Virus record (IMG/VR): IMGVR_UViG_3300009314_000709
Location: 8,433 to 72,432 of that record
Source of the DNA: a virus
DNA length: 64,000 nt
Strand: one strand, 5' to 3'
The notes beneath the pieces were generated by a model, which saw nothing but the letters and a program-made list of their open reading frames with translations, had not been told where the DNA came from and searched no databases. A program made the position numbers and the translations under genes. Shown in pieces: positions 6,837-64,000 of this stretch. Position 1 is the stretch's first letter. Each line of letters opens with the position of its first letter.

Positions 6837-7597
6837 GCTCCACCAGCCACCATACCAGTACCGATAAGGCCACCAGTTCCCAAAGCCTTTGCCCAACCAG
6901 GATGTTTCTTAGCAAACCCTCTCCACTTATCACCAAGTCCGCCAACAGCGCCTCGAATACCGGCTTGCCTACTAAGTGTTTTCGACCGACCCATTCGTTG
7001 GCCAAGTCGTTCAGCACCCCGGCCGACTGCGCCTAACAGTCCTTTTTCCTGACCTACGTCTTTTCCCCATGCTTGGACTTTTTGGACTACGCCGCCAGCC
7101 TTCATAGCATCAGTGTCGTGTCGATCTTGTAATTGTTTGTCAAGCTGTTCAGAACCTTGTCTCACCTGCTTTAAGAATTTTTGTATTATCTGTGCGCTTT
7201 GTACCCCTTTTGCTGTGTCAACGCCCATTGTTTGGGCTTGAGTAAGTGCTTGCGTAAGATCAGCAACAGCGTTGATCGCTTTTTCATACGCTGGGGTAAT
7301 TTGATGTGCCTGACCTTTGCCAAACCATCCACGTATTCCTTTATCTGCACGTTGACCTAGCTTAGCGCCACCTACTGCACCGCCGACAGTTCCCATTGGG
7401 CCGAGAATAGAACCTAGGGCACCTCCGCCAACAGCGCCCACCATACTACCCACACCTTCTTGAATGTCAAGTTCAAGGATTTCTATGAGGTCATTGATGG
7501 GCTCTAAACTCAAGTTGTTGTCTACAATGTAGACCGCACATTCCCAGATGATACGATCAAGTTCTCGTTGCTCAAAGTAAGTTTGAAACGTGCTCAT
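6833..7597 (-). CDS. putative head-packaged glycine-zipper protein
   Basis: MSTFQTYFEQRE start; GxxxG repeats (GAVGGGALGSILGPMGTVGGAVGG); paralogous to the 29807 gene. Confidence 0.6.
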   Translation of the reverse strand: MSTFQTYFEQRELDRIIWECAVYIVDNNLSLEPINDLIEILELDIQEGVGSMVGAVGGGALGSILGPMGTVGGAVGGAKLGQRADKGIRGWFGKGQAHQITPAYEKAINAVADLTQALTQAQTMGVDTAKGVQSAQIIQKFLKQVRQGSEQLDKQLQDRHDTDAMKAGGVVQKVQAWGKDVGQEKGLLGAVGRGAERLGQRMGRSKTLSRQAGIRGAVGGLGDKWRGFAKKHPGWAKALGTGGLIGTGMVAGGA

Positions 7598-7835: not shown

Positions 7836-8804
7836 TTATTTATGTATACCGGGCATTTTTACGATGGTTTGTTTTCCTTGTTTTAAGCGTTGGCAGCCAG
7901 CGATCATCTTGTCGGGGTATTCTTGATACTTGGGAAGTTCGATAGGCCACTTGTCATGTTCCTGTCGACGAGAACCAAGGACAATCGCATTACGATAGAA
8001 CTGCTGAGCTTTTTCGTAATTGGCCAACCGGTGGTAGTAAATGTCACCGAGAAGACACCAAAATTCGGCCATCACTGGATTGACAGCCAAGCACTCCAAG
8101 ATATGCTTCAGTGCTTGATTAGCATCCTTCTTGATATGACAAAGCACAATTGCTATATAGTACTTCATCATCAATGTGGACTTTCTCACTGCTCGTTCGG
8201 TGAAAAGGTACTTGGAAGCATAACCCAGAAAGTGATCCCAATCTTGTTGCGAAAGATAATGGAACGCTAGGTAGTAAGGCGGTTCGGGGCTAGCTGGTTG
8301 TTGCTGAGACCATTCTTTTAAGATGTCGATAGAGACACAGCGATCTCCATCTCCGTACAACATTCCACTCAAAACCTCAGCATCATCATCGTTGATATTA
8401 AGGTATTCGTAAATCGGATTTATGAATGAGATGTTGAGCGACTTGTGCCAAAGCCGTACCTCGTAGGAGACTGTATTGTTCTTCAGTATTGGCATGAAGT
8501 AAGCTGCCGGATCGCCATCCAAAACGGCTTTGATTCCCGCAGGATCGGTGACAATCTCCCAAGGCTCTAACACCATCTGCCATTCATACTCCGATTGATT
8601 GGACAGTCGGTTACGAAGTTCAGCAAAATTGCTGACCTGGCCGACATTGAAGACCTGCAAACCAAGACCTCGGCAGAGATCGCTAGAGCCATCTTCTGAA
8701 CCGATATCCGCAATCAGAAATTCTGGACTTAGCGTAGCGAGTGAATCAAACGCCCGGCACACAGTCTGTATGTCGTTACGCACTAGTATCTGGCATGTCA
8801 GCAT
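7836..8804 (-). CDS. GT2-like glycosyltransferase with C-terminal TPRs (degenerate)
   Basis: QILVRND...IADIGSEDGS...NFAELRN GT-A start; TPR helices (AEFWCLLGDIYY). Confidence 0.7.
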   Translation of the reverse strand: MLTCQILVRNDIQTVCRAFDSLATLSPEFLIADIGSEDGSSDLCRGLGLQVFNVGQVSNFAELRNRLSNQSEYEWQMVLEPWEIVTDPAGIKAVLDGDPAAYFMPILKNNTVSYEVRLWHKSLNISFINPIYEYLNINDDDAEVLSGMLYGDGDRCVSIDILKEWSQQQPASPEPPYYLAFHYLSQQDWDHFLGYASKYLFTERAVRKSTLMMKYYIAIVLCHIKKDANQALKHILECLAVNPVMAEFWCLLGDIYYHRLANYEKAQQFYRNAIVLGSRRQEHDKWPIELPKYQEYPDKMIAGCQRLKQGKQTIVKMPGIHK

Positions 8805-9929: not shown

Positions 9930-10490
9930 TTATTCTAGGTAAGCCCGATCATACCGCAAACTAATCTCCAAGAGAACTATCGACATGTCACCCATATCAA
10001 GGTCGCCGAAGTTGACCTCACGGGGGTAGCAGTTTTCAAACTTCCATTTTTCGGTGACTTTACCGCAGCCGTCGTACATGCACAAGACCGCATTTCGCTT
10101 AAAGAAGTCACCTCCATGTAAATTCGGGTCAAATACTGGTTTCCACTCTTCCCCTCCCTCCGGTTTGGGGTCGTAGGCTTGCTTCACCCACTCAAAGACT
10201 TTATTTTCGTTCGGACGAGTGTCATATAGTGTAAGTTGTAATGGCTTCCAATCTCCCATCACTGGATAGAAGATGTGTTGTACCAAATGCGAGACTTGCT
10301 GTTCTTTGAACTCCAATTGGGGACGAGCGGCTTTCAAAGGTGGCAAAGCATTGGAAACACCAGAAACGCCTTCGATTTGCAAGAGCCAACGGTTCTTAAC
10401 TTTCGGGAAGCAGGCACCCATGCCTTCTAACCCAAAATCCAAGCCCATATTGTCTCTATCGGTACATGTCGGATAGGTCGGTGGCGGCAT
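9930..10490 (-). CDS. tail tube protein paralogue 3 (T4 gp19-like)
   Basis: ARPQLEF, WKPLQLTLYD, MYDGCG.VTEKW.F..CYP..VNFGDLD, ISLRYDRA. Confidence 0.85.
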   Translation of the reverse strand: MPPPTYPTCTDRDNMGLDFGLEGMGACFPKVKNRWLLQIEGVSGVSNALPPLKAARPQLEFKEQQVSHLVQHIFYPVMGDWKPLQLTLYDTRPNENKVFEWVKQAYDPKPEGGEEWKPVFDPNLHGGDFFKRNAVLCMYDGCGKVTEKWKFENCYPREVNFGDLDMGDMSIVLLEISLRYDRAYLE

Positions 10491-11075
10491 CTACAAACAT
10501 CCTTCGCAGCATGGTGAGGGATCGACTCCACCGCATCCTACGATGTACTTAACTTGTGAGTATCGTAAAGTCATTTCGATATCGGCGATATTGGAAGAGC
10601 TATAATCTAGGTCGTTAAAGTTAACAGCCTGTGGCCAGGCATCTAGTAAGGTCCAGATTTCCATCACCGTGCCGCAGCCATCATACATGGTGAGCGTGGC
10701 TTTGCCGCTGAACCCTGTTCTTTTAGATGACATCTTCTTCGATGTCGGTTCGTTGAAATCATACACGGCAAGCAGCCACGAGAGAACCTGGACTCCATTA
10801 CCTTTGTTGGAGTCCAGGAACGTCACGGTAACTGGTTCCCAGGTTGCCTTGCCGGGTATCCACGTTCTGTCGTTTAGGAAGTTTATCTCGATCTCTTCAA
10901 ACGAGATACTAGGACGTGCTGCGACCTTGACAAAGTGTGGGTCAATTCGGAAGGAACAGTCATAGCCCTCTACCTCAAACGTCCACCTGAATTTAGTCTT
11001 GAAGACAGTTTGAGGATCACCTATACCGACAGAGCCGATACCCATGCCTTGAGAAGCGGGGTTAAAGCCTGCCAT
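10491..11075 (-). CDS. tail tube protein paralogue 2 (T4 gp19-like)
   Basis: FRWTFEV, VKVAARP, IPGKATWEPVTVT, DAWPQAVNFNDLDYSS, MTLRYSQV. Start moved to MAGFNP. Confidence 0.88.
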   Translation of the reverse strand: MAGFNPASQGMGIGSVGIGDPQTVFKTKFRWTFEVEGYDCSFRIDPHFVKVAARPSISFEEIEINFLNDRTWIPGKATWEPVTVTFLDSNKGNGVQVLSWLLAVYDFNEPTSKKMSSKRTGFSGKATLTMYDGCGTVMEIWTLLDAWPQAVNFNDLDYSSSNIADIEMTLRYSQVKYIVGCGGVDPSPCCEGCL

Positions 11076-11232
11076 GTACGTCCTCAACAGTGTGTAATCG
11101 ACATCTACGTACTCTCGTCTTAGATCAATCCATCGTTTCCAGTTGTTGACTTCTTTCACCAGGTACGTACATTTCCGCTTATACTACGCAGCTAAAACTA
11201 AGCTGCTCGTTTCCACTTTGGCTCGATTCCTA

Positions 11233-11865
11233 CTACGTGCAAGGGAAACAGCACGGGGTGTATTCCCATTTCGGACAGTAGTGCTCGAAGTGTACCTGCG
11301 AGTACCTAAGCGTTAGCTCAATGTCGACGGTGTCGGATGAACTGTAGTCTAGGTCGCCAAAGTTAATGGCTTGCGGCCACGCATCCTCGAATACCCATAC
11401 TTCTAGCAATTCACCACAACCATCCCATAACTTCAAAGTGGCTTCACCAGCGTAGTTAATACGCTTACTGTTCATGTACTTGCGGGTTGGCCTTGTGAAG
11501 TCAAAGACATTGGTGAGCCAGTCATACAAACCTAGGTTGCCACCAGCGGCGTCACCTGATAGATGTCCTGCGACATCCATATACGTGACCGTGATGGCTT
11601 CCCAGCTTGCTTTTCCTGGAATCCATGTCTTATCATTGAGGAAGTTAATTTCTGTTTCCTCGAATGACAGGTTAGGTCGGGCCGCTACTTTAACAAAGTA
11701 AGGCGGGACACTAAATTGACAATCACCTGTGCCCAAAATCTCTAGCGTCCAACGGAACTTCCGTTTGTAAACTACTTGGGGATCACCAACACCAACTGGT
11801 CCGATGCCCATACCTTGCGAGTTGGGATCAAAACCTGAGTAACCAGACATAGTTGGCATAATCAA
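11233..11865 (-). CDS. tail tube protein paralogue 1 (T4 gp19-like)
   Basis: RKFRWTLEI, IPGKASWEAITVT, DAWPQAINFGDLDYSS, LTLRYSQV; directly downstream of the sheath. Confidence 0.9.
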   Translation of the reverse strand: MIMPTMSGYSGFDPNSQGMGIGPVGVGDPQVVYKRKFRWTLEILGTGDCQFSVPPYFVKVAARPNLSFEETEINFLNDKTWIPGKASWEAITVTYMDVAGHLSGDAAGGNLGLYDWLTNVFDFTRPTRKYMNSKRINYAGEATLKLWDGCGELLEVWVFEDAWPQAINFGDLDYSSSDTVDIELTLRYSQVHFEHYCPKWEYTPCCFPCT

Positions 11866-11895: not shown

Positions 11896-14229
11896 TTAAA
11901 AAGTATCAGCGTTTTCGCTGAACGAACCAGTGCGGTGAATCGAGAAGTCGATAAAGATGAATTCGACTGCTCGGGTTGGTTGAACACCAATTCTCGCCCG
12001 CAACTCGTTCCTATCGATTACATCGGGCGGATTCAACTCTTCATCACATTGGACTCGATAATCCGTGAGTCCTCTCTTGCCCTTGACTTCTTCCAAAACC
12101 AGTTCAGCCATGTCGACGAACTGTTGTCGCAAGATATCATCGTGGGGCTCGAAGAGGAGCAAACGACTTCGGCGAGCGATCTGTTTCTCAATGTAGATCA
12201 TCATACGACGCACATTGACACGATCCAAAGCGGTCGGTCGTCGTTGTAGCGTCTTCTGGCCGAAGACCACGAAATCCTGAATGTCACTGAATTGCACAAT
12301 TGGGTTAACAGCGTTCCTGTTTCCATACATCTGGTCTCGTTCTTCGAGGCTAGGTCGTGAAAACACATCTGAGATGTTAGGAACGATACCACGGGTTAAA
12401 CCAGCGGGAGCAAACCACGGGGCTGATAGGTCATCAGATCGTGCATAGACAGCTAGAACCGAACCAGACGGTGGAACCCACACATCAATTCGGTTGGTTG
12501 TGTCACGGTATCTCAACCACGGCCAATACATCGCACCAAAGTCATTATCGAATCGGGTCAGGTTGAGTGGGTGCACACCGTTCTGCCAGTCCACAATCTC
12601 ATTGACCGTGAGCCCAAACGGTGGGTCGACGATAGTGAAGCAATCCATTCGCACGTCCCGGCACATTCGCAACTGTTCTACAATGACATCAGTTGACGCA
12701 TGGCCTGGGCAGCAGAGAATATCAATATCGACTTGCTCTGGGTCGGACAAAGACCACATACCAGTCATACCCAGTTCGTTTCCGATAATTAGCGCATCCT
12801 GTTCTTCGGGATCAGAAGGGATGCCGTCGCTGCCACCAGAAAGATCATAGGTGCCAGCTACCGGGCTTGCTGGGTTAGCTGTGTTGTCCGTTACACGAAT
12901 GAAGTCACTCACGAGTGACATGTACGATTCAACATAGAATCGGCTTGTATCATCCTTAGTCAGGCCACCCCATGCTTCAACTTCAGCACCATTGCTAAAG
13001 ATATTGAATTGGAATGTGCCATCTAGCGAGTTGTTTTCAATAACAACTTGCGTTTCATTGCCTTCAATGCCAGGCGAGTCAGCGTCGAGGGTGAAGCTAA
13101 TACCACCCGAACCTTCGGCCAAACCATTAGCTCGACCGACAGTATGAATGTCAGCATCACCAGTGGCTCCGATTGGGCTAACGCCTTCGGCGGTAATGTT
13201 AGCCAAACCAAAAATGGTATCGGCTGTGCTGGCTACCTTGACAAGCAGCTTAGAATCACGTCCAAAAGTGTCTGTCGTCAAAACCAAGTTCCCAGCACCT
13301 GTTGCCGAGGCAGTAAAGCCTTGGGCCTGGGAGTTGATTTCAAGTACGATGTCGGCAATAGCGGCATCCGTGTCTTCCAAGTCAGCGAGGTCGATGACTT
13401 GAACAATATCGTCAATCAATACGTTGTCCGTACCTTCCATGACGACTTGCAAGTTCAAATCAGCCAAGCCAGTGAAGTCATACTGCCCATCCGTCTGATA
13501 TGCAGTATTTGGATATTTGGTCGCCGTTCCGGTGACTGACGCCTGCTCCATTCCTGTACCAAGGCCGCTCACATTGCCACCGGCAACGGAGTCACCGTAC
13601 ATAGAACCAGAGACAGAAACCATTTCGAGTTCGGCGTCTGGACCATAAGCCCATGTTGTCCGCACGGCGATCTTGTCCCCGGTAGAGTTGTAGAACTCAA
13701 TTCCGTCAATGTCGGAGTCAAGCTGGTCATTCAACTCTGTTACGAGTTCGTCAGTTGTGTAAGTATCCGCCAGGACAACCAAGGTCTTGCTCGAAAGCCT
13801 TGTGTTAAGTCTCCATCGGAAGAATGCACTATCGGAAAACGTATAGGGTCCAGCCGTATCCGACTCGATCTGTACAGTCGAGCCAGACGCAGAAACGTCC
13901 ACACTCGCCGTTTGTGCTTGCTCGTCACTTACCGGGCTTTCGTCAGCTACACGCACAACGTACAGTTCGTTTGCCACAAGCAGATACTGCTCGCAAGCAT
14001 AGATGAGGTACGGGTCGCTCTCATCAGGATGAGGATACCCAAACGTGCGGTGTAGTTCTCGTCTTGTTTGAATTAGCGTTGGTAAATTGATCGGGCCTTT
14101 ACTGGCGAAGCCAACAAGTCCTGCCCGGTGTGGACTTGGGTTCGGCAGAATCAGACTCAAATCAGTTTCCTTGATCCGAACACTAGGGCTAATTGTATTG
14201 CTCGGTGGAAATCCCCTTAGAAGCGGCAT
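11896..14229 (-). CDS. tail sheath protein (T4 gp18-like)
   Basis: SPSVRIKETD, GFASKGP, PWFAPAGLTRG, VFGQKTLQ, ALDRVNVRR, FEPHD, QPTRAVEFI. Confidence 0.97.
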   Translation of the reverse strand: MPLLRGFPPSNTISPSVRIKETDLSLILPNPSPHRAGLVGFASKGPINLPTLIQTRRELHRTFGYPHPDESDPYLIYACEQYLLVANELYVVRVADESPVSDEQAQTASVDVSASGSTVQIESDTAGPYTFSDSAFFRWRLNTRLSSKTLVVLADTYTTDELVTELNDQLDSDIDGIEFYNSTGDKIAVRTTWAYGPDAELEMVSVSGSMYGDSVAGGNVSGLGTGMEQASVTGTATKYPNTAYQTDGQYDFTGLADLNLQVVMEGTDNVLIDDIVQVIDLADLEDTDAAIADIVLEINSQAQGFTASATGAGNLVLTTDTFGRDSKLLVKVASTADTIFGLANITAEGVSPIGATGDADIHTVGRANGLAEGSGGISFTLDADSPGIEGNETQVVIENNSLDGTFQFNIFSNGAEVEAWGGLTKDDTSRFYVESYMSLVSDFIRVTDNTANPASPVAGTYDLSGGSDGIPSDPEEQDALIIGNELGMTGMWSLSDPEQVDIDILCCPGHASTDVIVEQLRMCRDVRMDCFTIVDPPFGLTVNEIVDWQNGVHPLNLTRFDNDFGAMYWPWLRYRDTTNRIDVWVPPSGSVLAVYARSDDLSAPWFAPAGLTRGIVPNISDVFSRPSLEERDQMYGNRNAVNPIVQFSDIQDFVVFGQKTLQRRPTALDRVNVRRMMIYIEKQIARRSRLLLFEPHDDILRQQFVDMAELVLEEVKGKRGLTDYRVQCDEELNPPDVIDRNELRARIGVQPTRAVEFIFIDFSIHRTGSFSENADTF

Positions 14230-53635: not shown

Positions 53636-53685
53636 ATCCATCGTTGCCGTCTGCAAATAGAAAGCTATCTCCCTCTAATATCCTC

Positions 53686-56469
53686 ATGGCGGAGATAGCT
53701 TTTTTTGCAGACGCAATCACCGATGAAAATGGGTTGCTGCCCATTTATGAGCATCTTGACTACACTTTTGATGGTGTGCAACCAGTCTCAGCAGGCGATC
53801 TCAAATCCTGCTCGCCCGAACTTGTCATTACAAATCAAGCCACATCTCTGTTAGAACTCACGAGCAAGTTCCCTGTTGTTTTCTTCTTAACAGAGCCAAC
53901 GGGTTATCCTCTATTACAACCAGGCTTGTCGGTTCGACGCATCTTTCTCAATCCTCTTCGTATGCTAGAAGCGATGTTTGTGTTTTCATCTTTCGCAGCC
54001 AAGGAAATCGAGAGTGCTTATCGGATCAAGCCTATTGTTCAACTACCGATCATAAGACACGCACGGCAACGACAACAAGGCAACAAGATTGTTCACTCTT
54101 ATGTTCCGGGAAGTATTCAACAGGAGTTAACGAGGTGGAGATTTGTTCCCTACGAAAAACCATCTGACTTCGAGGGAGCAGCACTTTATGTTGATATGAC
54201 GAGTACATACGAGTGCGTAAATAGCCGCCTTTGTGTTGCAGCCGCACATGGTGTGCCTTGCGTGACGGCCGACAAGGGCTCCAATCCCGAATTGGCTAGC
54301 GGCGGTGATGTTCTCGTACCATTACACGTATCGGAAAGTAAGTGGTTAGAGGCGATTAAGGTAGGTTTGCGAGATAGACAGACCAATGGGGACAAGAACA
54401 AAAAGGCTAGCATGAGGTTTCAGAATATGGGAGACATTGACAAGCGAATTGAACGACTCACAAAACGTAAACGGGGCACATCCCTATTGCCAAAAATCGC
54501 CGCAAGACTTCAGGAAAGAAAAGCATTAGAGAAGATTGAAAAACTTAACAAGGAAAGGGCCAAGCGGAAGCCAGGTAGCTCCGTGAAAACGAAAGGACCG
54601 GTTATGGGACGAAGGGAAACGCTTGCTGAAAGAGAGCGACGAGCAAGGCGAAAACTAGAGAAGGTGCGATCTAGGAGGAAAGAAGAGCATGGCGGGAAAC
54701 CAACTTATCAAATCGTTGATACCCCATCGTGGTTTACAAACACAAAGTCCTGCGATGTATCAATCATCGTGCCAATGTACCGAAGTCGAGTGCACATCGA
54801 AAGACAAATCAGGGAGTGGGATATTCAAGATGACGGGCTTACTAAAGAAGTTATCTACGTAGACGACCTGTGTCCTCAGTACAGCGCTGAAGTCATCTTG
54901 CCTACCTGGGAAATCCACCGACAACACCTTAAAGGCAAACCGGTAGGCAAAATAATCTGCTCTCATACGAACCGGGGATATGGACCTAACTGCAACCTTG
55001 GAGCCAAACATGCATTGGGTAGGTATCTAATCTTTCTCAATGCCGACGTTTTTGTGTTGCAGAACTGGGTCAAGCCGATGTTTGACTTGTGCGAAAACGA
55101 TCCGCAAATCGGCATCGTAGGTAACATGCAGTTAGCTACTCGTGGCGAAGGAAACGTAATTGATTCTGCTGGTTCAGAATGGCATTGGACAGGCGGGCAT
55201 TTTGAACACATTGGGCGCACTAGCTTTCAGACTAAACGCCTTCCTCAGCCCATGCGACTTACCACAGCCCCAAAGGAACTCAAAGTCCCCGCCGAGCGGG
55301 AAATGGTTACTGGCTGCTGCTTTATGATCCCTCGGAAAGTCTTTGACGAAATTGGCGGTTACGATGAGATGTACAAAATCGGCTACTGGGAAGACAGCGA
55401 TATGAACATGGCCGTCCGTGAAAAGGGCTACAAGATATACTTTCAACCCGAATCTAAAGTATTGCATGTTGGTGGCCACGCCAAAGCAGGCAGCCACTCT
55501 TACATGAAGCAGAATAGAAGGCGATTCTTTTTCCGTTGGGTTGATACAGGGTTCGTAGACAAAGTTGCAGTCCAAAAGCGCCCTTCCACTCGTGGAGTCC
55601 CTTCGGCCACAGATGGAATCAAGAGCGCATTCCCAGGAGAAGCGGTTGGCTGCGTAATTGCCTGTAACGAAGAAGAATTTCTTGAGGCTTCGGTTCGCAG
55701 CATTGCACCGATGTGCAATCGCTTTGTATTTGTCATCGGCGGTAACAACTATGCCAGTGAAGTTGGTATGTGTAGGCCAAACGGCTACCCCAAAGACAAC
55801 ACACTGGACATCGCTCGATCACTGGCAAAAGAATTCAACGGCACTGTAGTTGAGCCGCCTGGCCGATGCTGGATCAACAAGACAGAAATGCGGAACGCCT
55901 ATGTCCAACACCTACGACCCTCGAATTGGATGTTCATGTTAGATGGCGACGAAGTGTACAAACCCGGTCAACTCTGGGTAATCGCTGAGCTTATGCGCCG
56001 ATTTGAGTGCTTGCGTATGCAATATTATGTCTTCTGGAATGATGTTGACACCATAGGTACCGGCACCTGGGAGAATTACCCTCAAGAACGAATTGTAAAG
56101 TGGAAGAAAGGATACCACTATCACGACAGGAATCACTTAGCAGTCGCAGATAGGTCAAAAAAGGACATTGCTTTTCGGGTGCCAACATACCACGACAAAG
56201 AAAAGCTGTTCTATCACTACTCCTGGGTCAGGCCGTTGTCAAAGATTCAGCAAAAGCTAGCGTATTATGCTGTTCAACTGAAAAGAGAATGGGGTCAAGC
56301 CAATGTTGTAAATCCTCGATATGTCGAAGAAGTGTTTTTGAAATGGCGTGAAGAACCGGAGGCAGTGACCGGCACTCACCCAAAAGGCGGCGGCGAAGTG
56401 TGTCCTTTCGCTGGGATTCATCCATATGAAGTAACTCAACTCATTCAACAGGGTAAATTGAGCTTTTGA
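53686..56469 (+). CDS. multidomain glycosyltransferase (GT-B remnant, basic linker, two GT2 domains)
   Basis: SIIVPMY, YVDD, NRGYG..CN.GA, IFLNAD, TGCCFMI, GYWEDSD; second GT-A domain NEEEFL...MLDGDE. Confidence 0.88.
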   Translation: MAEIAFFADAITDENGLLPIYEHLDYTFDGVQPVSAGDLKSCSPELVITNQATSLLELTSKFPVVFFLTEPTGYPLLQPGLSVRRIFLNPLRMLEAMFVFSSFAAKEIESAYRIKPIVQLPIIRHARQRQQGNKIVHSYVPGSIQQELTRWRFVPYEKPSDFEGAALYVDMTSTYECVNSRLCVAAAHGVPCVTADKGSNPELASGGDVLVPLHVSESKWLEAIKVGLRDRQTNGDKNKKASMRFQNMGDIDKRIERLTKRKRGTSLLPKIAARLQERKALEKIEKLNKERAKRKPGSSVKTKGPVMGRRETLAERERRARRKLEKVRSRRKEEHGGKPTYQIVDTPSWFTNTKSCDVSIIVPMYRSRVHIERQIREWDIQDDGLTKEVIYVDDLCPQYSAEVILPTWEIHRQHLKGKPVGKIICSHTNRGYGPNCNLGAKHALGRYLIFLNADVFVLQNWVKPMFDLCENDPQIGIVGNMQLATRGEGNVIDSAGSEWHWTGGHFEHIGRTSFQTKRLPQPMRLTTAPKELKVPAEREMVTGCCFMIPRKVFDEIGGYDEMYKIGYWEDSDMNMAVREKGYKIYFQPESKVLHVGGHAKAGSHSYMKQNRRRFFFRWVDTGFVDKVAVQKRPSTRGVPSATDGIKSAFPGEAVGCVIACNEEEFLEASVRSIAPMCNRFVFVIGGNNYASEVGMCRPNGYPKDNTLDIARSLAKEFNGTVVEPPGRCWINKTEMRNAYVQHLRPSNWMFMLDGDEVYKPGQLWVIAELMRRFECLRMQYYVFWNDVDTIGTGTWENYPQERIVKWKKGYHYHDRNHLAVADRSKKDIAFRVPTYHDKEKLFYHYSWVRPLSKIQQKLAYYAVQLKREWGQANVVNPRYVEEVFLKWREEPEAVTGTHPKGGGEVCPFAGIHPYEVTQLIQQGKLSF

Positions 56470-57131
56470 TGAACACGCATCATATTAGTGAACTCAAGAA
56501 TAAGCATGTTGGAAATGACATTTACGTTATTGGGAGCGGTCCCTCGTTAACGTTTATCAACAGCAAGTTTTTCCGAAATAAAATCGTCATATGTGTTAAT
56601 CATACTATCACCCATATCGATAAGGCGCAGGCACTTTACTTAGTGGCAAAAGAGCCTACGAAGTCTATGCAATCTGCGGCTGTTAAGCGTGGCGCAAGGA
56701 TCGTGACATGTCGGCGTCATTCGGGCGTTGCGAGCAATCCGCTGAACGAGTGTTTCTACCCAGAATCGACCTATCTCTTCGACCCAAAAGCAGATGTGAT
56801 CTCTAAGAAGGGCAGAATAAATGCTTTAGAGCGAAGTTCGTCCACCATTGTAACGGGTCTGCATTTGGCGGCTTTTCTAGGCACCAAATACATCGTTTTG
56901 GTCGGCCACGACTGCGGTAGAATCGATGATGAAATGCACGTGGAAAACTACAACAAACGTGGCGCTGTGATGAAAGGCGGTGCGTATGTTAAGTGGATGA
57001 GGCAGAACAAAGTAGAACTCAAAACACTTAAAGCAAAAGCACAACTCAAACAATACTGGGGAGTTGAAGTCTACTCACTAAATCCCTTCGTGAACTTCGG
57101 ATTGGAAAACCATAAGTATGAAAGGTTCTGA
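56466..57131 (+). CDS. MAF/DUF115 (GT42 CstI-related) putative nonulosonate transferase
   Basis: LKNKH.G.DIYVIGSGPSL, ICVN, LHLAAFLG.KYIVLVGHD. Confidence 0.75.
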   Translation: MMNTHHISELKNKHVGNDIYVIGSGPSLTFINSKFFRNKIVICVNHTITHIDKAQALYLVAKEPTKSMQSAAVKRGARIVTCRRHSGVASNPLNECFYPESTYLFDPKADVISKKGRINALERSSSTIVTGLHLAAFLGTKYIVLVGHDCGRIDDEMHVENYNKRGAVMKGGAYVKWMRQNKVELKTLKAKAQLKQYWGVEVYSLNPFVNFGLENHKYERF

Positions 57132-58090
57132 TGAAAATCGCCTTGCACACATTCTCGTCGGTGGTGCGACACAAGAGCGTCGTTTTGCGTAGTGCACTGC
57201 GTGATTTGGGTACTGAAATCTTATCCTGGCAGGAGCGAGCACAAGCCGATGGCTGCGTCATCTATAACATCCACAGTCTTGTCTATTCGGCTATTCACCA
57301 GGCTGCGAAACTCAAGAAGCCGCTCATCAGTTTACAAGAAGGCATGTTCGCAATTGGATGGTCGAGCACATGGCCTGGTATGCGAGCAGAATGTAAGAAA
57401 GCAAATACTCACAGAATCAAGCAACTTGTCTGGTCCCGTTTCGAGCAACAGAACTACGTGAAAATGGGACGCAGGCCCGAACTCGTAGAACATCTGGGCA
57501 ACCCAGAGTATGACTTACTAATAAAAGAACCTGAAACCACACGAGCAAGCTACGGTATCCCAGAAGACGCTTTCCTCATTGTACACATCGATCAGTACGC
57601 TCACCGTCGTGGAGGCCCAAACAAACAAGAAATCGACCTTATGTCAGCGCACATCGAGAAGCTAGTTGATTTAGGAAAACACGTTTGGTGTATCCGATGC
57701 TTACACCCAATTCACTCAAAGCACAAACAAAAGACAGTGGCCGGTAGACTGATCGTACGGCCGTTCCGTTACCCGATCTTCGACTTCTTGAGAATGGCGG
57801 ATTTGGTCATCACACTCAGCAGTACCGAAGGTGTCACTTCTGCGATTCTTAACGTGCCTATTATCCAATACGACCTCTCTGGCAGCAAAGAAAGATGGCC
57901 TTTCACGCAACATGGTGTGGCAGTTAGAGCGACAACATGCTCGAAGCTCGTGGAACTTACTAAGTTAGCAATGGACCACAAGCTGCCACTCCAGCCTACA
58001 GTCAACTACAAACATGAGTACCATGTCGATGGCAAATCGGCTGAACGGGTAGCTCAACATATAGTGAGGTATTTCAATGCAAACTGCTAA
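57131..58090 (+). CDS. GT-B fold putative sialyl/capsule-type transferase
   Basis: LQEG, GNPEYD, LHP, ADLVITLSST..TSAILNVP, DGKSAERV. Confidence 0.65.
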   Translation: MKIALHTFSSVVRHKSVVLRSALRDLGTEILSWQERAQADGCVIYNIHSLVYSAIHQAAKLKKPLISLQEGMFAIGWSSTWPGMRAECKKANTHRIKQLVWSRFEQQNYVKMGRRPELVEHLGNPEYDLLIKEPETTRASYGIPEDAFLIVHIDQYAHRRGGPNKQEIDLMSAHIEKLVDLGKHVWCIRCLHPIHSKHKQKTVAGRLIVRPFRYPIFDFLRMADLVITLSSTEGVTSAILNVPIIQYDLSGSKERWPFTQHGVAVRATTCSKLVELTKLAMDHKLPLQPTVNYKHEYHVDGKSAERVAQHIVRYFNANC

Positions 58091-58967
58091 AGCTATTCGC
58101 TGGCCTGTTAAAATCGTGGCCGAAATTGGTTGTAACCACAAAGGCGAAATGACTATCGCCAAAGAAATGATCGACGTGGCAGCGACTTTTTGTAAAGTTG
58201 ATGCCATCAAATTGCAAAAGCGCTGCAACAAAGAGCTACTCACAGAAGAAGAATACAATACACCGCATCCCAATCCCGCTAACAGCTATGGCGCAACCTA
58301 TGGCGAACACCGTGAATTCCTTGAGTTCACCGTAGAGCAGCACGCCGAACTGAAAGAATATGCCGAGAGTAGAGGGATCGAGTATTCAACATCGGTTTGG
58401 GATTTGACTTCAGCTAAAGAAATCGCCTCTCTCAAGCCGAACTACATTAAGATACCCTCGGCGTGCAATACTGACCATGTTCTCTTAGATTGGCTCCTTG
58501 AAAACTACATCGGACAAATTCATGTGTCCTTTGGAATGACAAGGAAGGATGAAGAAGAAAATGTGGTCCGTATGTTCGAGACTCGCTATCGAGCAAACGA
58601 CCTGGTAATCTATGCCTGTACTTCCGGCTACCCAGTACCTTTCGAGGATATCTGTTTACTGGAAATCAGCCGTCTACAACAGACATATCTACACAAAGGC
58701 CGTTGCGGTATGGTTGGGTTCTCTGGACACCACCTGGGGATCGCTGTAGATGTCGTAGCCGCCGCATTAGGTGCAAGAGTCATCGAGCGGCACTACACGT
58801 TAGATCGGACCTGGAAGGGTACCGATCACGCCGCCAGCTTAGAACCACAAGGTGTGATGAAGTTGGTTCGTGACGTGAAAGCCGTCAAACAAGCCTTGAC
58901 GTATAAGGATAAGGACATCCTAGATATCGAAGACGTGCAACGCAAGAAACTCAAGAGGTTCAAATGA
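58077..58967 (+). CDS. neuB: NeuB-family nonulosonic acid synthase lacking the C-terminal antifreeze-like domain
   Basis: AEIGCNHKG, KLQKR, STSVWD, KIPSA, CTSGYP, GFSGHHLG, IERHYTLDRTWKGTDHAASLEP. Confidence 0.93.
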   Translation: MQTAKAIRWPVKIVAEIGCNHKGEMTIAKEMIDVAATFCKVDAIKLQKRCNKELLTEEEYNTPHPNPANSYGATYGEHREFLEFTVEQHAELKEYAESRGIEYSTSVWDLTSAKEIASLKPNYIKIPSACNTDHVLLDWLLENYIGQIHVSFGMTRKDEEENVVRMFETRYRANDLVIYACTSGYPVPFEDICLLEISRLQQTYLHKGRCGMVGFSGHHLGIAVDVVAAALGARVIERHYTLDRTWKGTDHAASLEPQGVMKLVRDVKAVKQALTYKDKDILDIEDVQRKKLKRFK

Positions 58968-59146
58968 AGTTCGTTGACGGAAAAGTACAAAAGGTATTCG
59001 CCACAGTGAAAGGCGTGGAAGAGTTCCATAGCCTCTTGTATCCGCCTCTCCCTGGTAGACTTGTCGCTGTCCTTCTTGATTGTGATAAAGATGACATCCA
59101 ACCTGGAGATGTGATAAGGAAACGAGAATGCCCGAAGAAGAAGTGA
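58964..59146 (+). CDS. small hypothetical protein
   Basis: ATGA-coupled between neuB and cysC. Confidence 0.45.
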   Translation: MKFVDGKVQKVFATVKGVEEFHSLLYPPLPGRLVAVLLDCDKDDIQPGDVIRKRECPKKK

Positions 59147-59802
59147 ATGTGTATTGGCACAATCACTCAGTTCCTCGTGCAATGCACGAGGAACTGAGTG
59201 GGCACAAAGGATGTGTTGTATGGTTAACTGGACTTAGCGCTAGCGGAAAGAGCACTATTGCCAATGCACTTAGCTACGAACTTTACAAGGAGCAAATACA
59301 CGTCGTTGTGCTTGATGGAGACAACATACGGCACGGATTAAACGCTGGTCTAGGCTTCTCTCTCGAAGATCGTGCGGAAAACATCCGGCGTGTTGGTTGT
59401 GTAGCCAAGTTGTTCTGCGAATCAGGGATCATCACGATTACCGCTTTCATTAGCCCCTACCGGGTGGATCGGGATCGAGTAAGAGATAGTCTGGAGCCTG
59501 AAGATTTCATCGAAGTCTTTGTGAATACACCATTGGCTGTTTGCGAAGAGCGTGATCCGAAGGGATTATATCAAAAAGCCAGGGCTGGCGAAGTGAAGGG
59601 ATTTACTGGTATTGATGATCCGTATGAGTCGCCAAAATCGCCAGAATTAGTGCTTGATGGCGAGTTATCAGTACAACAACTTGTTGGTAGCGTCATGGAT
59701 CATTTACGAGAGGCGAGGAAAATCAAACCTCTACATTCCGACGAAAAGCACTTTTGTCCTTTTTGCAGGCGCTTTGATTGTCTAGGCGGTTGCCTCAGAT
59801 AA
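59128..59802 (+). CDS. cysC: adenylyl-sulfate (APS) kinase
   Basis: WLTGLSASGKST, LDGDNIRHGL, ENIRRV, AFISPY, RDPKGLY.KARAG, FTGIDDPYE. Confidence 0.96.
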   Translation: MPEEEVNVYWHNHSVPRAMHEELSGHKGCVVWLTGLSASGKSTIANALSYELYKEQIHVVVLDGDNIRHGLNAGLGFSLEDRAENIRRVGCVAKLFCESGIITITAFISPYRVDRDRVRDSLEPEDFIEVFVNTPLAVCEERDPKGLYQKARAGEVKGFTGIDDPYESPKSPELVLDGELSVQQLVGSVMDHLREARKIKPLHSDEKHFCPFCRRFDCLGGCLR

Positions 59803-59803
59803 G

Positions 59804-60454
59804 TTATGGTCGCTTGATCCACAAGCTCTTTTGATATCCATTAGACTCTACCGTTGATACGTATTTTGTTTGATAATTCGGCAATAACTTAGCTAAATGA
59901 CGGCTGTTGACCCTACATGCCCATACTGGAGAATGAGGGTTGAATTGTTTGCCTTTTTTTGTGTGCCGGTATTGCACCATGAGAACTTGCGCACCACTCT
60001 CGTTCAGATTTTCGCACCATGCATTTAAGAACCCTTCGTTTGGGAAATGTTGAACACATCCCCGTGTGATGAATATATCGGGCTCCAAATCAGCAAATAC
60101 CACTGGCATTTTCAACAACTCGTAACCATCTTCGCAACCTTGTAACTCCAAGAATTCTCTTGCCCTGTTGAGTTGTCGATCTGCAATGTCAATCCCGATA
60201 TATTTCTTAGCGCCAGCGCCTAATATTGGGATAGCTAGGCGACCATTACCGATGCCATAGTCGATAACTACAGCATCTTTCAAAATACTTGCTGCGTCCT
60301 TGAGCTTGTACCCAACTTCAAAATTATGAAGCATAGCCTCTGGCGTGATTACGTTATTCCACTTCTCGGGCGAGATATGGGCAAACCCTTCTTTGCAGGT
60401 TTCTCAATACTTTCTGTATTTCTTGTGATAGTGTTTACAACGTCTACCTGACAT
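59804..60454 (-). CDS. class I SAM-dependent methyltransferase with an in-frame TGA at codon 17 (otherwise starts at 60334)
   Basis: VIDYGIGNGRL, YIGIDIA, CVQHFP. Upstream ATG 60454 is in frame: MSGRRCKHYHKKYRKY*ETCKEGFAHIS. Confidence 0.75.
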
Positions 60455-60455
60455 G

Positions 60456-61844
60456 TTAAGCAGCCAAAGGTTCGTCTTCAGGCTCAGGTCCGGGCTCGCC
60501 TTCTGGTTCGAGTTCGATCTTTATCTTCTTCATCTGCTCCATGATACCTTCGATGATCGCTCTCGCTGCTTTAGTAATAGCATCGCCCCGCTTTTTGATC
60601 TTCTCACTATCCGCTTTCCAGAGAGCCAAGTATCTTGGAGCGTCTTTGGTTTCAAAGCCAAAGTAACTTAACACAACGAAAGCTGTAGCTTCAGCATCGT
60701 ATTCAAGCGTTGATTTTTCCAAAGCAGCCCGGTCTTGTGACGAAAGGGTTTGATGGAATAGTTCATGTGTAATTTCGTGAACCACTGTACTGAACTTATT
60801 GATACCATCATAGGTGGAGTTCACTGTGATTCCTTTACCCGTCGAGAATCCCCCATGCGCCGGAGCAAGTTCTTCGTAATCAATATCGATTCCTTTCTCT
60901 TTCGCAAACTCTACCGCAGCGTTAACAAGAACAGTGATTTCTTCCCTGCCTTCACTAGTATCCAATTTCCAGTCTTGCGGTTCAAACACATGCGCCTGAT
61001 CTTCCTGTCCTGGAATCACCATTGTTGAGGAAATGTCATAGACCTTCACAGGAACGAAGTACATGGCTCGGCGTTCTTCCTCGTCGCCCTCTTCCTCTTT
61101 TGCCTTCTTTTTCTCACCATTCTTTTTCTTGTATGTCCTAGGGGCGAGAATAGTGATCGCTTCTTTGCGCTTACTGGCCTCCACTAACCTGCCAAGTTCC
61201 CGCCACCTTTGCTCGCTATTCACGTAAGTAGCTTTGGGATTTTGTAGGAAGATAAGCATCGTGTTATGGAAGCTGTATTTGTGGAATTTTGCTGCAAACT
61301 GCCAGAATCGTTTCACGAAGTCGCTTTGCGAGGCTTCATCAGTCAACTGAGCCAGTTTTTCAATTTCCTTTTGCACGATGTTAAGAATTTGCTTTGCCTT
61401 TTCGCCCGATCTTCCTTCAACCTTCTCAATTTCCGCACTCATGGCGTTCAAGGCTTGTGTTGCTTCGCCCCCTTGGCCCTGCTGTTGTTCCTGGCCAGAA
61501 GTGATGTCTCTACCTACTACCGGTGAACTAAGTACCGCCTGCGCATCAATCCCTGTCAAGTCGGTGAATGCCTTCAGTTGATCGGGAGTCCACTTCGCCA
61601 ATGCAAATCGGGGCGTTGACCATGTGCCTTTGAAGTATCTAAAGCCCCAACCCTTCAACGTATCTTTGATCGGCTTCGTTTCACCGTACACAACAAAGAA
61701 ATCATAGTTCGGATCATTTGTCTTTCGAGGGTTGGCGCTCATGTGAGCGTGGACACCTTGAACGGTTTCCATCAACAACCATTGTCGGAAACTCATACGT
61801 TCAATATCTGGGCAACCCCAGAAAGCAGATTCGTCAAAGTTCAT
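60456..61844 (-). CDS. ArdC-like ssDNA-binding/zincin anti-restriction protein with capsid-targeting-like N-terminus
   Basis: FHKYSFHNTMLIFLQNPKAT, W..LGR.V, AITILAP, HEITHE, EYDAEATAF; MSFRQWLLME; CTATATA at 61863-61869. Confidence 0.85.
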   Translation of the reverse strand: MNFDESAFWGCPDIERMSFRQWLLMETVQGVHAHMSANPRKTNDPNYDFFVVYGETKPIKDTLKGWGFRYFKGTWSTPRFALAKWTPDQLKAFTDLTGIDAQAVLSSPVVGRDITSGQEQQQGQGGEATQALNAMSAEIEKVEGRSGEKAKQILNIVQKEIEKLAQLTDEASQSDFVKRFWQFAAKFHKYSFHNTMLIFLQNPKATYVNSEQRWRELGRLVEASKRKEAITILAPRTYKKKNGEKKKAKEEEGDEEERRAMYFVPVKVYDISSTMVIPGQEDQAHVFEPQDWKLDTSEGREEITVLVNAAVEFAKEKGIDIDYEELAPAHGGFSTGKGITVNSTYDGINKFSTVVHEITHELFHQTLSSQDRAALEKSTLEYDAEATAFVVLSYFGFETKDAPRYLALWKADSEKIKKRGDAITKAARAIIEGIMEQMKKIKIELEPEGEPGPEPEDEPLAA

Positions 61845-61884
61845 AGTTGCCTCTGTGTTACTTATATAGGCAAGGAGGCTTGAA

Positions 61885-62550
61885 TTGAAAGCAATTGCAT
61901 TGATACCTGCCCGAGGCGGCAGTAAGAGAATACCAGGGAAGAACATCATAGAGCTTGGAGGCAAACCTCTCATTGCTCACAGCATCATATCAGCGAAGAA
62001 ATGCAACATCATAGAGGAGGTGTGGGTTTCTACAGACGATCCCCAGATAGAGGAGGTAGCCAAAAATTTTGGGGCGGCCGTTTTTAGACGGTCGCCCCAG
62101 TTGGCGGGTGATACGGCTAGTAGCGAATCCGCCCTGCTTGAATTCACGGAACGCCAAGCTACGAGCTTTGACATTCTCGTGTTCATGCAAGCTACTTCGC
62201 CGCTCACCCTTCCCGAGCACCTCGAAGAAGGAGTTGAATTAGTTGCAAACGACCAAGCAGATTCCTGCTTGGCCGTTTGCGAGGACGTGCGTTTCTACTG
62301 GAACGCACAACGAAAGCCCCTGAACTATTGTCTCTTCCACCGACCTTTCACGCAGGAGAAAGAAAAGTGGTACAAGGAGACTGGGGCTTTCTACATCACA
62401 ACAAAAGATGCATTGCTTATATCTCGGTGTCGTGTAAGTGATCGTATCGAGTTCGTCATTGTTCCTGAGAAGTATTCTTGGGAGATCGACACTTACGAGG
62501 ATTTAGAGATTGTATCCAATCTTCTCAATAGTTCAGGGGTGGATTCTTAG
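61885..62550 (+). CDS. neuA: CMP-nonulosonate synthetase (acylneuraminate cytidylyltransferase)
   Basis: ALIPARGGSKRIPGKNI, VSTDD, QATSP, ETGAFY, EIDTYEDL. Confidence 0.95.
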   Translation: MKAIALIPARGGSKRIPGKNIIELGGKPLIAHSIISAKKCNIIEEVWVSTDDPQIEEVAKNFGAAVFRRSPQLAGDTASSESALLEFTERQATSFDILVFMQATSPLTLPEHLEEGVELVANDQADSCLAVCEDVRFYWNAQRKPLNYCLFHRPFTQEKEKWYKETGAFYITTKDALLISRCRVSDRIEFVIVPEKYSWEIDTYEDLEIVSNLLNSSGVDS

Positions 62551-63467
62551 TTGTTCACTTGCATGTATCTTACACTGTCGTATCGAAGCGTGAGGGACAC
62601 GTCAATTGGACTGCTGTTAGAATGGTCGAGATCGTGAAACTCAACGCCTTGGAACCATGCTTTGTCAAACACCCAAGTCTCTCTTGGGATACCGCTGCCA
62701 TCATATAACGTTAGTCGGCATGAACCTATGCAATGACCATCCTCACATGATTTGTCGTCGAACATACAAGATGAGACATTGGCCAAGGACTCCATGAACT
62801 CGCTTTTCGTGTCTATGTCGTAAACGTGAATGGCCACTGGTTGCCATTCTTGCGAATCGGGCTTGACACGGTGCCAGCCATTTTCATCCTTCTCTTCTTC
62901 GAGGATCAAGGAAGGGCGCTTATCGACTCGAACGAAACTAGGAGGGAAAACCACGTCGTTTGGAAACTCTCCCTGGAAACACCAACGCCCCTTCTTGTAG
63001 ATTTCAACGAAGGGTGAGTTCTCGTTAGCAAAACCAACCCCCTTTGGCCAATTCAGTGGTCTGAAATCAAGAGGCGTTAACGGCTCTTCGGGTTGTGGTT
63101 GTTCCACAACAGGCGAAATACCGGCAAAAGCACGGCTTTGCAGAAACACTCGACGTACAACATTGTTGCCTTTATCTTCCCATACACGGGCGTTTAGTGT
63201 CTTGTCATCAATGAGCAAGTCATAAGAGGGTTTACCCATTTCCAACTTATGCCGTTTGCACCCCCATTCGTTTAGCTGCCCCTCAGTTAATTCCCGCCAA
63301 TCAGCACCTGTTACACTACCACGGGCCGTCCAATAAACAACTTCATGGCCATCCTCGTAAAGCTCGTTGGCGAGGTCTATGTTGTCTTTGATGGGCTCTG
63401 CTGTTGCGTAATCACGATCAGGAGGAGTGCGACAAATCGTTTCGTCGACATCAATGTAAATTCTCAT
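62547..63467 (-). CDS. capsule-biosynthesis-type HAD phosphatase fused to a C-terminal tail-tube (gp19-like) domain
   Basis: N-terminus IDVDETI, YWTARG, GKP..DLLIDDK. C-terminus WQPVAIHVYD, LTLYDGSG..RETW.F.KAWFQ.VEFHDLD.S, LTLRYD. Confidence 0.85.
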   Translation of the reverse strand: MRIYIDVDETICRTPPDRDYATAEPIKDNIDLANELYEDGHEVVYWTARGSVTGADWRELTEGQLNEWGCKRHKLEMGKPSYDLLIDDKTLNARVWEDKGNNVVRRVFLQSRAFAGISPVVEQPQPEEPLTPLDFRPLNWPKGVGFANENSPFVEIYKKGRWCFQGEFPNDVVFPPSFVRVDKRPSLILEEEKDENGWHRVKPDSQEWQPVAIHVYDIDTKSEFMESLANVSSCMFDDKSCEDGHCIGSCRLTLYDGSGIPRETWVFDKAWFQGVEFHDLDHSNSSPIDVSLTLRYDSVRYMQVNN

Positions 63468-63739
63468 CTTACACCAAAATGGAAGGAAGGGTAGAGCGGA
63501 TGCTGATGATTTGTTGATAGGCAGAAGGCTCCTTCCTCTAACCGCCTCGTAATCTGCAACAATCGGTTCACCCACTCCTTAATAGAGAGCGATGCCTTCG
63601 ATATATTACAGTGTTTACAACAACTTCTTACGTTGTCTAAGTGGTAGCCATCTTTGTTGTTAATTCGGTCTAATCCTATTGTTTCAATTGGATCGCCGCA
63701 GTATGTACATGGCTTTTGCCAAAACAGGATAAATTCTTC
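63464..63739 (-). pseudogene. 3' fragment of an HNH-type endonuclease gene interrupted by the IS element
   Basis: Manual translation EEFILFWQKPCTYCGDPIETIGLDRINNKDGYHLDNVRSCCKHCNISK. No start codon; abuts the IS end; its TGA overlaps the phosphatase ATG. Confidence 0.75.
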
Positions 63740-63741
63740 GT

Positions 63742-64000
63742 GTCAATTACCCCGCCGCTAAAGACGGCGGGGCTTGTTACACCGCTTTAAGCAGGAACAT
63801 TAGCAGCCGTTAAGCCGCCGTTAGGCAAATTGACAGTTGCCCAATCTGGATAGCCTGTAGCGTCCAGATATTTGAGAACGATATTTTTACTAGCGTTGAG
63901 GTCAGCATTTAGTTGGAAACCACAATTCCTACACTTGAACTTACTTTGCTTTTGGCGATTGCCTTTGTGTATGTGTCCACACTTGCTACAGCGTTGGCTA
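63742..64000 (-). mobile_element. IS200/IS605-family element, right end (partial)
   Basis: Subterminal hairpin CCCCGCCG-TCTTTAG-CGGCGGGG followed by TAATTGAC, downstream of tnpB. Confidence 0.8.
63787..64000 (-). CDS. tnpB: TnpB RNA-guided endonuclease, C-terminal part
   Basis: SQRCSKCGH...FKCRNCGFQLNADLNASKNI (Zn ribbon plus RuvC-III). Confidence 0.9.
   Translation of the reverse strand, partial: SQRCSKCGHIHKGNRQKQSKFKCRNCGFQLNADLNASKNIVLKYLDATGYPDWATVNLPNGGLTAANVPA

Follow-up and report, generated by a model that had tools for sequence, protein, structure and literature searches.

Introduction

Tail-tube proteins are regarded as dedicated structural parts. In type VI secretion, a tube protein is also found as the N-terminal part of extended ("evolved") Hcp, where it is fused to a C-terminal effector or toxin domain. 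Among the enzymes of sugar-acid synthesis, the phosphatases acting on KDN-9-P, Neu5Ac-9-P, and Kdo-8-P are capless C0 enzymes of the HAD family that free the sugar acid for activation with cytidine monophosphate (CMP), and structures of such KdsC-type phosphatases are present in the PDB. Here, a phage gene is described in which a small HAD phosphatase and a tail-tube module are encoded by one open reading frame (ORF). The gene lies at 62547–63467 on the minus strand of a 64,000-nucleotide stretch of DNA, hereafter "the window," which is the final 64 kb of the 72,432-base IMG/VR virus record IMGVR_UViG_3300009314_000709 (positions 8,433–72,432 of that record). Both domains are of known kinds, and their combination was not found described: a literature search, whose limited coverage proves no absence, turned up no metabolic enzyme joined to a tail-tube domain.

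The closest described systems concern either the enzyme or the attachment of sugar acids to filament proteins. AfhF is presented as a Mg-dependent phosphatase that converts Araf-1,5-P2 to Araf-1-P, removing the 5-phosphate ahead of activation with uridine diphosphate, and is likened by its authors to heptose-bisphosphate phosphatase (PMC13326640). In flagellin glycosylation, Maf enzymes are stated in a preprint to require a TPR domain or a separate factor, GlfM, for the acceptor, and this specificity factor is predicted to be a four-helix bundle (bioRxiv 10.1101/2023.12.03.569772). Furthermore, glycosylation of mycobacteriophage capsid and tail-tube subunits is mentioned in a report (PMC12619734, citing Freeman et al. 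2023).

A phosphatase and a tail-tube module in one reading frame

The fusion gene, whose product is designated P0001, is a single unbroken ORF of 306 codons plus stop, running from an ATG at 63467 to a stop codon at 62547–62549. The product consists of a small, capless HAD phosphatase domain extended by two further C-terminal helices at residues 93–115 (residues 1–116, 63120–63467; identified by PHROG 1238, the structure 9iqw, and AlphaFold2), a Pro-rich disordered linker (residues 117–133, 63069–63119), and a gp19-family tail-tube module composed of an N-terminal arm and a beta-sandwich (residues 134–306, 62550–63068; identified by blastp, AlphaFold2, and Foldseek). A GTG start would extend the reading to 342 amino acids, reaching 63575, but the ATG is preferred because the homologues P0002, P0003, and L005:5956–6837, introduced below, all start where it aligns, with the shared opening M-[KRI]-I-Y-[IV]-D-[VI]-D-E-T. 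A preliminary description, made from the sequence alone, had read the gene as one ORF joining a DxDxT/TARG/GKP/DDK phosphatase to a fourth gp19-like domain through a Pro-rich linker, about 50 kb from the tail module. This reading is borne out by the 306-residue translation, which contains DVDET, TARG, GKP, and DDK as well as the quoted tube motifs RWCF, VDKRPSL, WQPVAIHVYD, LYDGSG, WFQGVEFHDLD, and LTLRYD. In the linker, five of the 17 residues are Pro, and in the alignment it has no counterpart in HAD-only or tube-only relatives; its disorder is indicated by the AlphaFold2 predicted local distance difference test (pLDDT), which is <50 for residues 117–147.

The N-terminal part is matched over residues 1–93 by PHROG 1238 (expect value, E, 1.2e-24), a family of small HAD proteins whose label, "phosphoheptose isomerase," is a mislabel. 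Motif I reads D6-V-D8-E-T10, the DxDxT/V form with the Asp nucleophile and the Asp+2 acid/base. Across 80 aligned sequences, N34, R49, and K79 are invariant and D6, D8, T47, D83, and D88 are at least 90% conserved; T47 is the Thr of motif II, K79 the Lys of motif III, and D83 and D88 the acidic residues of motif IV, with D87 within "IDDK." Two AlphaFold2 models were made, one from a tube-rich alignment (A5), in which the HAD part is poor, and one from a HAD-rich alignment (A6), on which the description of the HAD domain is based; a mixed alignment (A4) of fusion, tube-only, and HAD-only proteins was discarded, as tube proteins fell onto the HAD columns. The second model has pLDDT of 92–98 over residues 1–90. 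In the Atlas structure search, the HAD part reaches template modelling (TM) scores of 0.93–0.95 to viral HAD clusters of about 105 amino acids, and Foldseek aligns it with 9iqw_E (E 2e-5, 26% identity, TM by target 0.55) and 1xpj_B (TM by target 0.57). By sequence search, phmmer with residues 1–115 against all PDB chains gives four matches at E <=1, of which 9iqw_A is the sole convincing one (E 5.8e-9); according to the Foldseek table, 9iqw is AfhF of phage HY126, a D-arabinose 1,5-diphosphate phosphatase. None of the four is a KDN-9-P or Kdo-8-P phosphatase of the KdsC type, and the score for TIGR01689, the EcbF/BcbF capsule biosynthesis phosphatase family, is 17.3 bits against a cut-off of 162, outside that family. 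Thus, the proposal that the enzyme is a KDN-9-P phosphatase is not upheld by its relatives, AfhF being the nearest, and is favoured by gene context only.

The same small HAD domain is promiscuous. Elsewhere it is fused to PF02348 cytidylyltransferases (directly, in at least ten of the homologues listed), cupins, a SIS isomerase, a methyltransferase-like region, a GIY-YIG/NUMOD nuclease, and a giant-virus nucleotidyltransferase. The direct fusions to cytidylyltransferase, cupin, SIS isomerase, and nucleotidyltransferase tie the domain to nucleotide-sugar synthesis; its phage homologues also adjoin heptose-pathway genes, carbohydrate kinases, and nucleotidyltransferases. Such fusions were seen among P0005–P0052, P0135, P0031, and P0044, and the HAD-cupin form is a sizeable viral family. 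P0004, which has the nearest HAD domain and a C-terminus of 300 amino acids, was considered as a further tube fusion and rejected, given an hhalign probability of 0.1 and no PHROG tail match. Judged by motifs and homology, the N-terminal part of P0001 is a capless sugar-phosphate HAD phosphatase that looks active, its activity being predicted.

The C-terminal part is a relative of the tube proteins of the same phage. PHROG 4542, "tail tube protein," matches residues 206–303 (E 1.1e-9), and blastp of residues 126–306 against the 406 stop-to-stop frames of at least 60 amino acids in the window finds three genes, at 10491–11159 (E 3.8e-20), 11233–11865 (E 1.3e-18), and 9930–10490 (E 1.6e-7), all other matches having E >=0.7. 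In alignment A1, the homology spans nearly the whole tube protein, including the stretch that corresponds to the N-terminal arm of the structural paralogues; the only part missing is the Cys-rich C-terminal tail (CC..C) in which the two larger of these end. The tube core residues R161, W162, R184, P185, G259, E263, W265, and Y296 are retained in the fusions, and G143 is invariant. For residues 160–306, pLDDT is about 88–90 (about 90 in the tube-rich and about 88 in the HAD-rich model).

The predicted fold agrees with this homology. Foldseek against the PDB gives matches to 6rao_F (Afp5, E 2.8e-7), 9qgl_5A, 6j0n_n, 6j0b_a, 9mkb, 5iv5, and Hcp chains, with E from 1e-7 to 1e-4, probability 1.0, and TM by target 0.41–0.62; by type, these comprise Afp5, Pvc5, Pvc1, tubes of the Algoriphagus and Anabaena injection systems, T4 tail entries, and many Hcp structures. 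In BFVD, the matches are tail tube proteins (E 1e-8), tube-terminator proteins, and baseplate tube-like proteins, and in the Atlas the tube part has TM 0.65–0.82 to PF06841 clusters. A profile of the fused domain with its paralogues retrieves 1265 proteins, and PF06841 is present in many of the 120 that were listed. By homology and predicted fold, the C-terminal 173 residues of P0001 are therefore an almost complete gp19-family tail-tube protein. Among clusters of at least 50 members, the Atlas search found none with both domains. Five BFVD models (A0A8X8M438, E5EYX1, A0A248SL06, A0A8D4KGV5, and A0A3T0IFK8) align with the query over 239–313 columns at a root-mean-square deviation of 20–30 Å; either the alignments may be spuriously extended or the models may represent two-domain relatives with a different orientation.

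Recurrence of the fusion

The fusion is found in three further, diverged versions. P0002 (303 amino acids, 60% identity, 99% coverage) and P0003 (308 amino acids, 47% identity, 98% coverage) were found by word-indexed search, and P0053 (262 amino acids) by exhaustive protein search. A metagenome scan located the gene of P0053 in its context, at positions 5956–6837 of the contig L005, as an ORF of 293 amino acids with 37% identity to P0001; since this full-length ORF has motif I intact, P0053 is simply a call from an internal start. The four HAD catalytic motifs are intact in all four fusion proteins. A tube hidden Markov model run over 199 proteins matched five of them, namely the four fusion proteins and P0119, a tube-only protein of 200 amino acids. 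The protein clusters of the fusion are small, with 1–3 members on 1–4 contigs, of which the longest are 110 kb and 340 kb; P0003 is on a contig of 59 kb and P0053 on that of 340 kb. No relative of the fusion was found in IMG/VR viral contigs (two scans) or in prokaryote genome contigs; tblastn with the fusion against the phage collection matched 385 records, none covering at least 80% of the query, and word-indexed search with residues 126–306 alone returned only the query itself.

These homologues bear on whether two separate genes were joined by an error of assembly or sequencing. Nothing in favour of such an artefact was found; the distance from the gene to the contig end is 425 bases. Contig pieces from three DNA sequencing runs match the gene without differences, and one of them (63058–63218) links the final part of the HAD domain with the tube arm, which is weak evidence; no single contig in those runs covers the whole gene, parts of which are uncovered, and the runs, of low depth, belong to one study, possibly include the source sample, and may therefore not be independent. 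No RNA run is among the sequencing runs listed as containing the stretch. What decides is that four diverged full-length versions occur in separate assemblies from separate sources: the artefact is refuted by the homologues and its probability is negligible, and the fusion gene, as the comparison of these sequences tells, is real, conserved, and old. Of the outcomes that would have undone the preliminary description, a sequencing error and a fusion unique to this record are thus removed.

Divergence of the fused module

In a tree of 67 tube domains, in which the full L005 ORF stood in for P0053 and every other row was kept, the fused domains of all four proteins group with P0119 in one clade with support 95/86. 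The end branches in this clade are 1.3–10 long against a median of 0.31, and the tree tool cautions that this is where long branches come together. Comparison of the window with the L005-type phage shows 66% identity for the HAD parts and 65% for the structural tube proteins, the latter figure taking P0244 as the L005-type tube protein on the ground that equal contig figures place it on the same 339,821-base contig as P0053. The fused tube parts of the same two phages give no BLAST match at E 1e-3. That the fused parts have diverged beyond BLAST while the structural tube is 65% identical suggests that the fused module has been freed from the constraints of the tube lattice, and evolution faster than that of the structural tube genes argues against a regular tube subunit.

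Tail genes and source phage

The three structural tube paralogues (9930–10490, 10491–11159, and 11233–11865) stand in tandem at 9930–11865 on the minus strand, downstream of a sheath gene at 11896–14229 (PHROG 23, E 1e-79). PHROG 4542 recognizes them with E 2.7e-18, 1.6e-30, and 7.9e-28, and PF06841 gives them 29.5, 24.7, and 17.3 bits against a cut-off of 28.2, so that one of the three passes. The fusion gene is 51 kb away from these sheath and tube genes and thus outside the tail module. Pairs of tube paralogues are also found on one contig in other metagenomes (P0205 with P0209, P0211 with P0221, and P0206 with P0232), so a multi-paralogue tube looks like a lineage trait. A glycosyltransferase hinted at by PHROG beside the tube genes (7836–8804) was rejected, as Pfam shows only a TPR repeat there.

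The source of the gene is a very large phage of T4-like, marine kind. CheckV estimates the completeness of the 72,432-base record at 14%, which suggests the large size, and the sheath protein has at most about 27% identity, over full length, to any phage in the collection, T4-like cyanophages being the nearest. The T4 late-promoter consensus TATAAATA has no match in the 64-kb window, where 1.1 would be expected, despite the T4-like tail genes.

The nonulosonate cluster beside the fusion gene

The fusion gene stands at the end of a sugar cluster encoded on the plus strand. The cluster is headed by a family-2 glycosyltransferase of 941 amino acids (53644–56469; Pfam Glycos_transf_2, E 5.6e-20), which is followed by a putative MptE-like or Maf-like nonulosonate transferase of 221 amino acids (56466–57131; sub-threshold for PF01973, 30.8 bits against a cut-off of 34.6), an Epimerase_2-like, or NeuC-like, gene (57131–58090; sub-threshold for PF02350, 28.9 bits against 30.6), and a NeuB-family nonulosonic acid synthase (58077–58967; Pfam NeuB, E 9.1e-65). 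With the NCBIfam models NeuB_NnaB and PseI, the synthase scores 186 and 135 bits, respectively, both below cut-off. An APS kinase is encoded at 59128–59802 on the same strand (PF01583, E 1.7e-69), whose presence in the cluster hints at sulfated products. The cluster is closed by a cytidylyltransferase of the CMP-nonulosonate type, neuA/pseF-like (61885–62550; Pfam CTP_transf_3, E 5.3e-31), for which the best NCBIfam match is PseF with 137 bits against a cut-off of 205.7. The interval from NeuB to the cytidylyltransferase (59128–61973 of the window) contains the APS kinase, a methyltransferase, and a 505-residue protein with ArdC-N and metalloprotease-like parts; the methyltransferase and ArdC-like genes are on the other strand from the cluster. 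At the corresponding site, L005 has a different gene of 203 amino acids.

The fusion gene adjoins the cytidylyltransferase tail to tail, with the stop codons overlapping by four bases (62547–62550). The earlier statement that it lies beside neuA therefore stands; the two genes are convergent and do not share an operon. In L005, the fusion gene is likewise tail to tail with the cytidylyltransferase, with a 26-base overlap (6812–6837), and the overlapping 3′ ends leave no room for a terminator between the two genes in either phage. Orthologues in the window and L005 are 54% (family-2 glycosyltransferase), 62% (MptE-like), 54% (epimerase-like), 33% (NeuB), and 65% (cytidylyltransferase) identical. 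L005 holds two MptE-like homologues (62 and 47%), one of which immediately precedes the fusion gene in the same orientation, with a gap of 70 bases. At the level of gene order, two phages with only 37% identity between their fusion proteins thus share the linkage of this gene to a nonulosonate cluster.

The two clusters also differ. NeuB (58077–58967, compared with L005 8266–9090) is 33% identical between them while its neighbours are 54–65% identical, and the synthase may have been replaced between the two phages, which would imply a different sugar acid. At 1–661 on the minus strand, a few kb from the sugar cluster, L005 carries frames with collagen-like Gly-X-Y repeats, which may be part of a fibre protein. 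On the other side of the fusion gene, the window contains at 63787–63999 (minus strand) the C-terminal zinc-ribbon part of a TnpB/Cas12f-like protein (PF07282, E 3.9e-12), running off the contig end; this TnpB-type C-terminus indicates a transposon-type element just upstream of the fusion gene. A G+C-rich hairpin (63745–63775) follows the stop of this frame. Possibly left over from a homing endonuclease, a frame of 92 codons without an ordinary start codon lies at 63464–63742 on the minus strand; it has an HNH-like Cys/His motif (Pfam HNH only at E 0.75) and ends in a TGA that overlaps the fusion-gene ATG.

Possible roles of the fused module

The reading that is favoured here, and that is given about an even chance, is that the protein is a pathway phosphatase mounted on a tube-derived assembly or tethering module which is no longer a subunit of the tube lattice. 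The HAD domain would supply the dephosphorylated sugar acid, or a precursor of it, to the adjacent cytidylyltransferase of the nonulosonic-acid cluster. The tube module would have left the tube lattice and been re-used as a self-assembling anchor, or one that binds tube-family proteins, most simply as a ring; joined flexibly through the Pro-rich tether of about 17 residues, the anchor would hold several enzyme copies at one place in the infected cell. Several points weigh against this reading. Gene neighbourhood is known for only two of the four fusion lineages, and in the window the fusion gene runs towards the cytidylyltransferase gene instead of sharing a transcript with it and is flanked by the mobile-element remnants described above. 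Bacterial NeuB pathways use a non-phosphorylated sugar in the condensation and are not known to require a phosphatase. Oligomerisation or partner binding by the tube module is a prediction of this reading. The fused domain is not reached by PF06841: P0001 matches no Pfam family at E <=1, and residues 127–306 match none at E <=10. Finally, the contrast in divergence depends on P0244 being the tube protein of the L005-type phage, and fast evolution could equally reflect relaxed selection.

Relaxation in its extreme form would make the tube module a functionless passenger, a duplicated tube gene that was fused to the phosphatase and is decaying. The very long branches, the missing Pfam match, and the failure of PHROG 4542 to match two of the four fusion proteins (P0002 and L005) at E 0.01 are all consistent with decay. 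Four lineages of 37–60% identity nevertheless all have the frame open from end to end, the tube core motifs persist, and the fold is confidently predicted from the alignment, so that a passenger has little probability. The enzyme, rather than the module, is reinterpreted if the HAD domain serves another sugar route, of heptose, mannose, or pentose nucleotide-sugars, and stands by the cytidylyltransferase incidentally. AfhF, the nearest characterised relative, acts on arabinose 1,5-bisphosphate, the phage homologues have the heptose-pathway, kinase, and nucleotidyltransferase neighbours noted above, and the commonest fusion partner among the matches listed is a cupin named "mannose-6-phosphate isomerase-like." Adjacency to the cytidylyltransferase has nevertheless been kept in both phages despite the divergence of their fusion proteins, and the domain is joined directly to PF02348 cytidylyltransferases in the homologues mentioned above, which makes another route appear improbable.

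The remaining alternative, that the module still belongs to the tail, is a possibility to be taken seriously, although a doubtful one. In this case, the tube module would co-assemble with, or cap, tube-family proteins of the phage, so that the enzyme and with it the nonulosonate pathway would either be recruited to tails under assembly or travel in the virion as a minor component of the tail. Retention of nearly the whole tube protein, including the stretch aligned with the N-terminal arm, and the invariance of G143 speak for such docking. The structural tube, at 65% identity, and the fused domains, beyond the reach of BLAST, have followed different courses, which is unexpected if the latter fit a conserved lattice. 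Moreover, a sheathed tube has little room for six extra 13-kDa domains and is not exposed in the virion, and a phosphatase upstream of CMP activation is an odd enzyme to place at an acceptor. A special form of docking, suggested by analogy, is that the tube module is the acceptor-recognition adaptor of a phage protein glycosylation with nonulosonic acids by short Maf-like transferases, that is, a metabolon for virion "sialylation" with a recycled structural protein at its base; co-assembly of this module with tube-family or other virion proteins would tether sugar synthesis to the assembling particle. The L005 fusion gene following a Maf-like gene, the shortness of the MptE-like protein of the window, in which no TPR domain was found with Pfam, the need of flagellin Maf enzymes for a TPR domain or GlfM, and the glycosylated mycobacteriophage tail-tube subunits count in favour of docking and would fit such an adaptor, which is nonetheless unlikely.

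Whichever role applies, several very large marine phages have long retained a protein in which a biosynthetic enzyme and a complete tube module form one chain, encoded within a cluster for sialic-acid-like sugars. Should the module have kept the ability to form rings or to bind tail proteins, it would be a first example of a building block of virions put to use in organising metabolism; equally possibly, glycan synthesis would be physically linked with virion assembly. The 306-residue P0001 is a simple, expressible object for testing these roles. In addition, the gene marks out a lineage of phages with probable nonulosonic acid synthesis as well as family-2 and Maf-like transferases and an APS kinase, the candidate targets being the virion, the host surface, or others.

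Comparison with known systems

The enzyme part of P0001 has the same small HAD fold and catalytic motifs as AfhF of Escherichia phage HY126 (9iqw), the PHROG 1238 proteins of T4-like phages and cyanophages, and EcbF/BcbF. Like P0001, AfhF and the PHROG 1238 relatives are phage-encoded and tied to nucleotide-sugar synthesis. All of these are single-domain proteins of about 100–135 amino acids with no tube domain, whereas P0001 has two domains, and its context is a nonulosonate cluster instead of the DNA-arabinosylation cluster of AfhF. The KdsC-type phosphatases are also capless HAD enzymes and have the role proposed here for P0001; they differ in HAD subfamily, and no sequence match to them was obtained in the PDB at E <=1.

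The tube part shares its fold and core motifs with the T4 gp19 family (PF06841), Afp1/Afp5, and Pvc1/Pvc5. Compared with the gp19 family, P0001 adds an N-terminal enzyme and is encoded 51 kb from the tail module within a sugar cluster, and its module lacks the Cys-rich C-terminal tail, evolves several times faster, and misses the Pfam model. Extended Hcp resembles P0001 as a ring protein of tube fold that covalently bears an enzyme, and Hcp structures are among the Foldseek matches of P0001. In P0001, however, the order is reversed with the enzyme N-terminal, the enzyme is biosynthetic and not a toxin, and the setting is a phage, with no evident delivery role. Lastly, the likeness to the Maf-1 TPR domain and GlfM lies in a nonulosonate pathway with Maf/MptE-like genes that needs recognition of a filament-forming protein. 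Apart from the tube module, no domain in the cluster of P0001 is virion-like, and an adaptor role for this module parallel to that of the TPR domain or GlfM, with which it shares no sequence or fold, is purely what we infer from this analogy.

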